The notes: generated from the letters alone by a model not told the origin. 59,951 bases of DNA from Escherichia coli (GCF_003334335.1 NZ_QOWQ01000031.1), one strand, 5' to 3'. Counted from the stretch's first letter, positions 15,824 through 17,691 are shown. Numbers and translations are program-made.

Positions 15824-16728
15824 GATTTCGCTCCCGGTAGAGTGATGCCAGAGAAAATCTTGATAACTGCGCTATCGTCTTCTTTCCCGTAACCCGCGTT
15901 ACTGGCGCTGGTGAACATATTCAATGCTGTTGAGGCCAATGGCAGCGGGAAGTGCAGGGCTTTGGCTGTATCGGCAACCAGACCAAGATCCTTAACAAAA
16001 ATATCGACGGCTGAATGCGGGGTGTAATCGCCATCCACCACATGACGCATCCGGTTTTCGAACATCCAGGAATTTCCGGCGGCATTGGTCACGACGTCAT
16101 ACATCACATCCAGCGGGATCCCCGCACGGGCTGCAAGTGCCATCGCTTCGGCTCCGGCAGCAATATGTACGCCCGCTAACAACTGGTGAATAATTTTTAC
16201 GGTCGAACCTAGTCCCGGTTCTGCACCTATGCGATAAACTTTTCCGGCAACGGCTTCCAGCACGGGTGCCAGTCGTTCAAAGGCAATATCGCTACCGGAG
16301 GCCATGATAGTCATTTCACCGTTAGCGGCTTTTACTGCACCACCAGAAACTGGCGCATCCAGCATTTCCAGATCGAATCCAGCCAGAGCGGTAGCAATTT
16401 CTTGCGCATCAGCACTAGCGATAGTGGAAGAAACCATTACTGCCGTACCGGGTTTCAGATGTTGTGCAACGCCTGTTTCACCAAACAGCACCTGTTTAAC
16501 CTGGGCCGCATTGACCACCAGCACCAGCAGTGCGTCCAGTTTTTCGGCAAACGTCGCGGCGTTATCAGAAACCCCGCAAGCACCTGCCTCTTTCAACGTA
16601 GCGCAGGCATTGCTGTTCAGGTCTGCGCCCCAGGTAGAAAGACCTGCGCGGACACATGACAGTGCTGCTCCCATTCCCATTGACCCTAAGCCAACGATAC
16701 CGACATGAAACTCAGATCCCGTTTTCAT
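15820..16728 (-). CDS. ygbJ: L-threonate dehydrogenase (3-hydroxyisobutyrate dehydrogenase family; LtnD)
   Basis: 302-aa ORF with N-terminal Rossmann motif GIVGLGSMG. Confidence 0.8.
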   Translation of the reverse strand: MKTGSEFHVGIVGLGSMGMGAALSCVRAGLSTWGADLNSNACATLKEAGACGVSDNAATFAEKLDALLVLVVNAAQVKQVLFGETGVAQHLKPGTAVMVSSTIASADAQEIATALAGFDLEMLDAPVSGGAVKAANGEMTIMASGSDIAFERLAPVLEAVAGKVYRIGAEPGLGSTVKIIHQLLAGVHIAAGAEAMALAARAGIPLDVMYDVVTNAAGNSWMFENRMRHVVDGDYTPHSAVDIFVKDLGLVADTAKALHFPLPLASTALNMFTSASNAGYGKEDDSAVIKIFSGITLPGAKS

Positions 16729-16893
16729 CTGCTCTCCTTGTTAATTTAAGTGATATTTTGTTTGATATTGTGAATATAAGCGCTGGAAGATAACGATATG
16801 GTGATCTGATTCACATAAATTAACATTGTGTGTTATTTTATGTGAACTAAGCGTTAGTTGCGCCGCGCACGTTTCGCAGGCAAATAGCGTAGA

Positions 16894-17691
16894 ATGTCAG
16901 CAGGACAAAGGAAGGAGCAAAAGTTGATACCCGTAGAGCGTCGCCAAATCATCCTTGAGATGGTAGCTGAAAAAGGCATTGTCAGTATTGCTGAACTAAC
17001 GGACAGAATGAATGTGTCACATATGACCATTCGTCGGGATTTACAAAAACTGGAGCAGCAGGGAGCCGTTGTGCTGGTGTCCGGAGGCGTCCAGTCTCCG
17101 GGACGCGTGGCGCATGAACCTTCTCATCAGGTAAAAACTGCGCTGGCAATGACGCAAAAAGCGGCTATTGGCAAGCTGGCGGCAAGTCTTGTTCAGCCGG
17201 GAAGTTGTATCTATCTGGATGCGGGAACGACCACGTTAGCGATAGCACAGCATCTGATTCACATGGAGTCACTGACTGTGGTCACAAACGATTTCGTTAT
17301 TGCGGACTACTTGCTCGACAACAGTAATTGCACAATTATTCACACTGGCGGTGCAGTGTGTCGGGAAAACCGTTCCTGTGTCGGGGAAGCCGCTGCGACC
17401 ATGCTGCGCAGCCTGATGATTGATCAGGCTTTTATTTCTGCATCGTCATGGAGTGTGCGGGGGATTTCTACGCCAGCGGAAGATAAAGTCACGGTGAAAC
17501 GGGCGATTGCCAGTGCCAGCCGCCAGCGAGTTTTGGTCTGTGATGCGACGAAATATGGTCAGGTGGCGACATGGCTGGCGTTACCATTAAGCGAGTTTGA
17601 TCAGATTATTACAGACGACGGTTTGCCGGAGAGTGCCAGTCGCGCGCTGGTGAAGCAGGATCTCTCTTTGCTGGTAGCGAAAAATGAATAA
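16894..17691 (+). CDS. ygbI: DeoR-family transcriptional regulator
   Basis: N-terminal HTH and C-terminal DeoR sugar-binding domain; divergent from ygbJ. The true start may be the TTG at 16924 (255 aa). Confidence 0.8.
   Translation: MSAGQRKEQKLIPVERRQIILEMVAEKGIVSIAELTDRMNVSHMTIRRDLQKLEQQGAVVLVSGGVQSPGRVAHEPSHQVKTALAMTQKAAIGKLAASLVQPGSCIYLDAGTTTLAIAQHLIHMESLTVVTNDFVIADYLLDNSNCTIIHTGGAVCRENRSCVGEAAATMLRSLMIDQAFISASSWSVRGISTPAEDKVTVKRAIASASRQRVLVCDATKYGQVATWLALPLSEFDQIITDDGLPESASRALVKQDLSLLVAKNE

Follow-up and report, generated by a model that had tools for sequence, protein, structure and literature searches.

A conserved 15-bp element around a CRP site as the proposed operator of YgbI in the ltnD/ygbI spacer of Escherichia coli

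The divergent spacer between ltnD (ygbJ) and ygbI of Escherichia coli contains a repeated 15-bp unit, with the consensus TGTTAATTTWWGTGA, that was conserved in the 12 Enterobacterales compared and occurred in three to four copies around a CRP site. We propose that this 15-mer is the operator of the repressor YgbI and that YgbI acts, from the copies of this element, on a class-II-type ltnD promoter activated by CRP. We estimate the probability of this reading as a whole at about 0.6. The analysis was carried out on a stretch of 59,951 nucleotides of E. coli DNA (GCF_003334335.1, NZ_QOWQ01000031.1), referred to here as the window, and coordinates are those of the window unless another sequence is named (Table 1).

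The binding of YgbI in the spacer, the repression of the operon, the binding of CRP in vitro and the start of ygbI come from published experiments. ChIP-exo detected a single YgbI site in the genome, between ygbI and ygbJ (NC_000913.2 2859304-2859334, signal/noise 12.5), and deletion of ygbI raised the expression of ygbJ, K, L, M and N by log2 5.6, 5.2, 5.1, 4.6 and 4.0 (16- to 47-fold) and resulted in a strain that grows on L-tartrate (Gao 2021). The same control by YgbI was deduced from evolved strains, and ygbI mutants also over-expressed ygbI (Sastry 2019; Guzman 2019). YgbI is a confirmed factor in RegulonDB v12, which took up the site of Gao 2021. Since a single target precludes a motif search, the published site is a 31-bp interval without a motif (Gao 2021). 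A paper on dgcZ of EPEC mentions a 'YgbI-binding box', for which no sequence is given in the text; this box showed no regulation. The region-level binding of YgbI, the regulatory outcome and the CRP site are already known. An earlier note on this DNA, made from the sequence, had placed operators through which YgbI would control both ygbI and ygbJKLMN in this spacer; it was right about the region and the regulator, both already published, and wrong about the motif.

The RefSeq ygbI starts at TTG 16924, the orthologues all align from the residue encoded at this codon, and GGAAGGAG precedes it. The transcription start of ygbI was mapped 21 nt upstream of the TTG (Mendoza-Vargas 2009, PMC2760140). 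The region had previously been described as 165 bp long with its right border at 16893, a border that rests on a superseded ygbI start at ATG 16894. Because ygbI begins at TTG 16924, the spacer is 16729-16923 and measures 195 bp. Its description as AT-rich was borne out (37% G+C in 16729-16893 versus 53% for the window). The open reading frame from ATG 16894 (265 aa) over-extends ygbI, and the mapped transcription start falls within it. A scan of 16500-17100 against Rfam gave no RNA family match.

Table 1. Features of the ltnD/ygbI spacer and its borders, with palindromes of related loci
Feature	Sequence	Position	Strand	Remark
ltnD (ygbJ), L-threonate dehydrogenase		first ATG base 16728	-	
O1a, proposed YgbI operator	TGTTAATTTAAGTGA	16739-16753	+	predicted +14 to +28 of ltnD transcript
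O1b, weak 15-mer	TGTTTGATATTGTGA	16759-16773	+	predicted -7 to +8 of ltnD promoter; 20 bp after O1a
Repeat 1 of the earlier note	TGTGAATATAAGCG	16769-16782	+	last pentamer of O1b, ltnD -10 and 4 spacer bases
Predicted ltnD (ygbJ) -10 hexamer	TATATT	16773-16778	-	inside repeat 1; implies start near 16766
CRP site	TATGGTGATCTGATTCACATAA	16797-16818		core GGTGA-N6-TCACA 16800-16815, centre 16807.5; contains TTCACA
O2, proposed YgbI operator	TGTTAATTTATGTGA	16811-16825	- (inverted)	predicted -45 to -59 of ltnD promoter
O3, proposed YgbI operator	TGTTATTTTATGTGA	16831-16845	+	predicted -65 to -79 of ltnD promoter
Repeat 2 of the earlier note	TGTGAACTAAGCG	16841-16853	+	last pentamer of O3 and 8 non-conserved bases
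Palindrome, E. coli	AACTAAgcgTTAGTT	16845-16859		
Palindromes, related loci		L007 2429-2443; L008 2427-2449; L009 2434-2446		
YgbI ChIP-exo peak		16846-16876		published; -57 to -27 of ygbI promoter
ygbI promoter		16890-16903	+	-10 TAGAAT 16890-16895; mapped transcription start ~16902/3
ygbI, DeoR-type repressor		start codon TTG 16924	+	255 aa, RefSeq

The spacer of the window was compared with 11 further ltnD/ygbI spacers, from E. albertii, Salmonella, Entomohabitans, two Serratia, Pectobacterium, Dickeya, Citrobacter portucalensis, Pantoea and two further genomes (12 Enterobacterales), and the orphan ygbI of Y. pseudotuberculosis, which has no ltnD operon beside it, was added as a thirteenth. 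The spacers were gathered via homologous proteins and the contigs encoding them; a contig scan with YgbI alone gave only four loci. The identity of YgbI among the orthologues was 58-96%, gene order was conserved at the orthologous loci, and ygbI was divergent from ltnD-otnK-aldolase in 11 of the 12 orthologous loci fetched, the exception being the Y. pseudotuberculosis orphan. The N-terminal PF08220 (HTH_DeoR) and the C-terminal PF00455 (DeoRC sensor) were found on YgbI and on all orthologues, and the helix-turn-helix, GxxSIxELTxxxxVSHMT(I/V)RRD(L/V)Q.LE, was invariant among them; the operator should therefore be conserved too.

The comparison established the conservation, spacing, specificity and copy number of the 15-mer. 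Alignment of the ltnD-proximal 100 bp showed a single 1-nt indel across all genera, with conserved blocks at 16739-53 (TGTTAAtTTnAGTGA), 16757-62 (TTTGTT), 16768-82 (TG.T.AAT.TAAGCG), 16800-15 (gGTGA-N6-TCACA) and 16811-24 (TCACAnAAATTAAC). The close clade also keeps TGTTAtTTTaTGTGA (16831-45), the ygbI -10 block, AAATAGCGTAGAAT at the ygbI promoter and the ribosome-binding site; no such conservation was seen between 16846 and about 16880 in this clade. O1a, which lies just upstream of the ltnD ribosome-binding site, was fixed in position in 12 of 12 Enterobacterales, and O2 was likewise kept in all of them. O3 was present in E. albertii, Salmonella, Entomohabitans, L008 and L009, at 15.6-25.2 bits. 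The spacing between O1a and O2, taken from alignment-based positions, amounted to 72 bp in the close clade and to 73 bp in all others; in an unconstrained search, O1 of Entomohabitans and L009 was shifted inward by 20 bp, which gave spacings of 52 and 53.

A position weight matrix was trained on 24 O1a and O2 sites, those of E. coli included (18.6 bits, consensus TGTTAATTTTAGTGA). The information in the 15-mer was concentrated in TGTTAA and GTGA, 10 bp apart. Searching the 60-kb window at a threshold of at least 12 bits resulted in three matches, O1a, O2 and O3. The first two scored 25.2 bits each and are training sites of the matrix; O3, which lies outside the training set, scored 21.3 bits and was the only non-training match at this threshold. 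In the 73.5 kb of orthologous loci, all matches of at least 12 bits except two were located in ltnD/ygbI spacers. The similarity of the copies to each other was also far from what shuffled sequence gives: eight pairs of 15-mers had at least 13/15 identity, versus a shuffle mean of 0.06, and none of 300 shuffles reached eight.

O1b scored 8.9 bits in E. coli, and the same place scored 18.4 bits in L009 and 10-11 bits in Salmonella and Entomohabitans; its TTTGTT and TGTGAA/TGTTAA blocks were conserved in the spacer alignment. By reading of the sequence, pentamers are found at 16739, 16749, 16759 and 16769, with a 10-bp period, and the pentamer-class listing gives only 16739 and 16769 of these four. 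O2 and O3 constitute an inverted pair, with the same 20 bp between centres as O1a and O1b, and a 16-nt inverted repeat at 16810-25/16831-46 is 94% complementary, a value reached by 1.3% of shuffles. Pentamers of the YGWKA class, which was defined after seeing the sequences, were three-fold enriched, and in 12 of the 13 spacers same-strand YGWKA pairs at 10-11 bp were more numerous than in almost every shuffle.

Two to five copies of the 15-mer were found per spacer in the 13 genomes. Serratia, Pectobacterium, Dickeya and Citrobacter are without O3 and have instead a copy, TGATAATWATTGTGA, located 25-62 bp upstream of the ygbI start codon, and the orphan ygbI of Y. pseudotuberculosis retains two copies. 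These extra copies upstream of ygbI, together with those of the Yersinia orphan, indicate that the 15-mer travels with ygbI and not with ltnD. At the Yersinia locus (L014, ~2362-2410 and 2446-2460) the orphan keeps TGTTAATTTTGGTGA...GGTGAAAATTAACG, which looks like O1a and O2 joined by deletion of the intervening promoter, and a copy is also present on its own promoter. Pectobacterium (L011 ~2396-2420) and Dickeya (L013 ~2421-2445) have in common an element, GACGTGAATTTATGATAATTATCG, upstream of ygbI, with the pentamers CGTGA-N5-TGATA; this suggests that sites may differ in the order of their pentamers.

Footprint-seq revealed a previously undescribed CRP site at ygbI/ygbJ, taTGTGAatcagaTCACCata, with an inferred in vitro Kd of 8.4 nM (Wang, Stringer and Wade 2026 preprint, PMC12871828). 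The published sequence maps to 16797-16817. The TTCACA at 16810-16815, previously regarded as an additional inverted half-site for YgbI, is present as described; since the published CRP site covers it, it is one arm of that experimentally footprinted site. The CRP core agrees with the consensus TGTGA-N6-TCACA at 9 of 10 positions, with one mismatch, was kept in the orthologues, and has TCACA in common with O2.

Read on the minus strand, repeat 1 contains CGCT-TATATT in E. coli, with CGCT-TACATT in its place elsewhere, and the T, A and final T of the -10 hexamer (TA.ATT) were kept in nearly all orthologues at a fixed distance from the CRP site. The CRP centre at 16807.5 corresponds to -41.5 relative to the predicted ltnD start (~16766), and no -35 match was found there. 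Because no indel separates the -10 and CRP elements, the predicted class II geometry is kept in all genera. We infer a class-II-type, CRP-activated ltnD promoter with a predicted start near 16766. Scanning the minus strand for consensus promoters gave nothing, as is expected for the ltnD promoter since it has no -35; for such a promoter the scan is uninformative. A different ygbJ promoter, TTCACA-16-GTTAAT, was given from sequence alone by Shimada 2014. Its -35 lies within O3 and is missing in distant genera.

The proposed mechanism would be as follows. The ltnD-otnK-ygbLMN operon would be transcribed leftward from a start near 16766, with no -35, a -10 TATATT (16778 to 16773) and CRP centred at 16807.5. 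YgbI would bind the 15-bp elements through the pentamers TGTTA and TGTGA, a direct repeat 10 bp apart. O1a and O1b would cover the start site and the early transcribed region, O2 would share TCACA with the promoter-distal CRP half-site, and O3 would pair with O2 as an inverted repeat; with the operators so placed, occupancy by YgbI would exclude both RNA polymerase and CRP. One YgbI oligomer may bridge the O1 and O2/O3 sides via a loop, as in DeoR and GlpR, and the invariant 72/73-bp spacing between O1a and O2 (~7 helical turns) suggests such a looping oligomer. YgbI would be released by an intermediate of the threonate/erythronate pathway. The same sites would serve autoregulation of ygbI, and genera further removed carry an additional copy right on the ygbI promoter. 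The role of YgbI as reader of the 15-mer, the ltnD start site, the competition with CRP, the looping and the inducer are the parts of this scheme that we infer. Its most specific form, in which YgbI reads the non-palindromic TGTTA-N5-TGTGA, prevents activation directly via the pentamer common to O2 and CRP and holds O1 by a 72/73-bp loop, is tentative, and we place it slightly below an even chance.

Known systems of the same family resemble this scheme. YgbI and E. coli DeoR are 30% identical over 210 residues, and their recognition helices (VSHMTIRRDL and VSEMTIRRDL, respectively) are identical in 9 of 10 residues. The DeoR operators O1, O2 and OE are 16-bp palindromes, TGTTAGAA-TTCTAACA (PMC5326754). 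The near-identical helix, taken with this operator sequence, makes TGTTA a plausible contact of YgbI. As in E. coli deo, the sites contain a TGTTA core, and several operators are spread across a promoter region with a CRP site; DeoR is known to form loops cooperatively, and for YgbI this is plausible. Unlike the DeoR operator, the YgbI 15-mer is not palindromic, being a direct repeat of two related pentamers. Single 15-mers fail the DeoR-type palindrome test, and an inverted repeat is seen only in the O2/O3 pair, with TAACA-N5-TGTTA at its centre. The proposed YgbI operators are 20 and 72/73 bp apart, whereas those of deo are separated by hundreds of bp. In further contrast to deo, one of the proposed operators shares a half-site with CRP, and YgbI has a single known target.

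GlpR, AgaR and UlaR are DeoR-type repressors of sugar-acid and polyol genes whose tandem, phased sites overlap the -10, the start and the CRP site, and repressors of the GlpR type act at a CRP-dependent promoter with a pathway intermediate as inducer. The arrangement proposed for YgbI is similar in its tandem, helically phased sites at a CRP-dependent promoter, but the sequence of the sites differs from the 15-mer. In Brucella the DeoR-family protein VdtR represses the ltnD promoter of an ltnD/otnK erythronate-threonate cluster, which is induced in vivo by D-erythronate or L-threonate, and in gel shifts VdtR bound several sub-fragments of this promoter, which indicates multiple sites (PMC10580937). 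VdtR and YgbI belong to the same pathway and the same family, although the organism is distant; since the operator sequence of VdtR is undefined, the two motifs are not comparable.

The proposed link of YgbI to the 15-mer rests on comparison, and O1b is weak in E. coli. The main evidence against the 15-mers as operators is the ChIP-exo interval, which, taken as it stands, would place the binding in sequence that is not conserved, between O3 and the ygbI -10. Its placement in the window depends on the offset from NC_000913.2 to NC_000913.3, which we take to be +1978. The published YgbI and CRP sites concern the same spacer, regulator and operon, but the 31-bp interval misses the conserved 15-mers: it abuts O3 and overlaps none of them. 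It covers a palindrome found in E. coli only (AACTAAgcgTTAGTT) and the last 8 nt of repeat 2, and its sequence was not conserved in E. albertii or Salmonella. A possible third pentamer, CGTTA, is seen at 16852, 11 bp past the TGTGA of O3 (TGATA in E. albertii). It would possibly extend the O3 array into the peak.

Taken literally, the ChIP-exo result suggests another arrangement, in which the palindrome, with its DeoR-like GTTAG, is the main operator and blocks the ygbI promoter, the 15-mers being auxiliary or used otherwise. Nearly the whole palindrome lies under the peak, CGTTAG is similar to the TGTTAG half-site of DeoR, GTTAGT and ACTAAC occur in the dicC operator region with which YgbI was pulled down, and Salmonella has a different palindrome in the same place. 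However, the palindrome is destroyed in E. albertii, the YgbI of which is 96% identical and has the same helix, and the sequence in Salmonella is another one; being degraded in the former and replaced in the latter, it ranks lower as main operator. Its half-sites point outward, unlike those of DeoR operators, and by a rough estimate some 30% of 60-bp stretches of this kind would contain 6-bp arms by chance. The palindrome also lies ~90 bp upstream of the predicted ltnD start, a poor position for 16- to 47-fold repression unless it cooperates with other sites. We consider this arrangement unlikely. Palindromes with arms of 6-7 bp between O3 and the ygbI -10 were observed in 4 of 6 close species, unrelated in sequence (arms AACTAA/TTAGTT, AACAAAC/GTTTGTT, CCGCCC/GGGCGG and GTAGCC/GGCTAC), and in E. 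albertii none was present. Conserved palindromicity as a structure or operator was rejected, as it was not beyond chance (~0.07, a rough estimate) and was absent in E. albertii.

A global factor might bind the 15-mers in place of YgbI, either ArcA, which recognizes TGTTA direct repeats, or nucleoid proteins on AT-rich DNA. In the ArcA box the direct repeats have an 11-bp centre-to-centre spacing, and the second pentamer contains GTTA. TGTTAATT agrees in full with the first half of the ArcA box, one Reg-Seq bait enriched ArcA together with YgbI, and H-NS was flagged for the spacer by Shimada 2014. Against this, the second pentamer of the 15-mer has GTGA at a 10-bp spacing, which differs from the known GTTA at 11 bp of ArcA, the copies track ygbI, including its own promoter and the orphan Yersinia gene, and the motif is absent elsewhere in the 60-kb window. 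The YgbI ChIP-exo signal, moreover, is confined to the ltnD/ygbI spacer. Binding of the 15-mers by a global factor is thus very improbable, and an ArcA box was discarded as a candidate on the second pentamer, (A/T)GTGA at 10-bp spacing in the 24 training sites, as compared with the ArcA consensus.

Reg-Seq mass spectrometry also assigns YgbI to idnK (-48 to -27), leuABCD and dicC. The reported bait intervals at these three loci gave no match to the 15-mer matrix, which tells against the 15-mer as the operator, and were therefore dropped as an independent link between YgbI and the 15-mer. The only matrix match near the baits, TGTCATTATTTGTGA, scored 13.4 bits; it lies between idnD and idnK, ~90 bp upstream of where YgbI had been assigned. 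This match (L019 2460-2474, MG1655 4494459-4494473) overlaps a CRP-like TGTGATGAAGATCACG, a composite layout like that of O2 and the CRP site.

The direct repeats TGTGAA(T/C)(A)TAAGCG were themselves put forward in the earlier note as the recognition units of YgbI, with TTCACA as an extra half-site, and there is little chance that this is correct. Both strings exist, one base to the right of 16768-16781 and 16840-16852 where they had been placed, and their distance is the 72 bp, start to start, that had been given. Repeated sites are used by DeoR-type repressors, repeat 1 is conserved in many genera, and repeat 2 overlaps the ChIP-exo peak by 8 nt. The degenerate pattern TGTGAA(T/C)-TAAGCG was unique in the window, though it was written after seeing the repeats. 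With dinucleotide-preserving shuffles of the 195-bp spacer, the best gapped direct repeat was this pair in extended form, with a score of 12 that 11.7% of shuffles reached, and the 13/14-nt core of the pair (score 9) was reached by 77%; as a pair, the repeats are not beyond chance for an AT-rich spacer.

The orthologues separate the two repeats. Repeat 1 was kept across Enterobacterales, while repeat 2 retained TGTGA only: its counterpart is TGTGACGTAAGTG in E. albertii (YgbI 96% identical) and TGTGAAATAACAA in Salmonella, and TAAGCG was lost in both despite an identical YgbI helix. A second copy of TAAGCG is also absent from distant orthologous spacers. Loss of the repeats from orthologous loci had been named in the earlier note as an outcome that would refute these operators, and the non-conserved TAAGCG of repeat 2 counts against them; since repeat 2 is not conserved, TGTGAAY-TAAGCG fails as a repeated operator conserved with its regulator. 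Repeat 1 does keep its TAAGCG, but there the sequence falls on the predicted ltnD -10 hexamer (its first two bases) and on four spacer bases, and TTCACA belongs to the CRP site. Read at the level of the sequence, what the repeats have in common is the TGTGA with which each begins, and which ends O1b in the case of repeat 1 and O3 in the case of repeat 2; the flanks are unrelated.

The 15-mer matters chiefly for annotation. As a regulator with a single target, YgbI was validated only recently and has no defined motif, and the 15-mer is a testable operator for it. If true, the TGTTA-N5-TGTGA reading would provide the first base-resolution operator and a mechanism for YgbI, beyond the 31-bp ChIP-exo interval. 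The silence of ltnD-otnK-ygbLMN in wild-type K-12 would be accounted for by a composite layout in which operators flank a class II CRP promoter, and the same layout would explain loss of function of ygbI as a route to growth on tartrate in evolution experiments. The system is an ordinary case of DeoR/GlpR-style phased multi-operator repression with CRP activation and involves no new principle; the base-level assignment of operators would be a modest refinement. The 15-mer consensus and the composite geometry were not found in the searchable literature.

Several further observations were made at the locus. On the plus strand, the promoter scan gave a sigma-70-like promoter directed at ygbI, TTCACA-18-TATTTT with a TG extension (16810-16839), which Shimada 2014 gives as well. 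With the -35 in O2 and the -10 in O3, this promoter would initiate at ~16846, at the left border of the ChIP-exo peak, and it could serve ygbI as a second promoter covered by operators. Within the ygbI coding region, a matrix match of 11.5 bits, TGTGAATAATTGTGC, was detected on the minus strand at 17330-17344, and it recurs at the same codon position in Salmonella (L007 2907-2921) with 14.0 bits; either an auxiliary operator inside the gene or mere coding conservation could account for it.

Within E. coli, polymorphism in the spacer was too sparse to tell the models apart. Neither the spacer nor ltnD/ygbI had a match in 838 of 5426 complete E. coli genomes, which indicates that the locus is accessory in this species. 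In strain 720632 an 801-bp stretch was identical to the window (16400-17200), and ygbL is annotated there as a pseudogene with an internal stop. In E. coli KFu019 (L024 ~2380-2500) the spacer is broken near window position 16797 by foreign DNA with genes for a protein with a transposase domain, an HTH protein and a regulator of the MerR family, and this insert parts CRP/O2/O3 and ygbI from ltnD.
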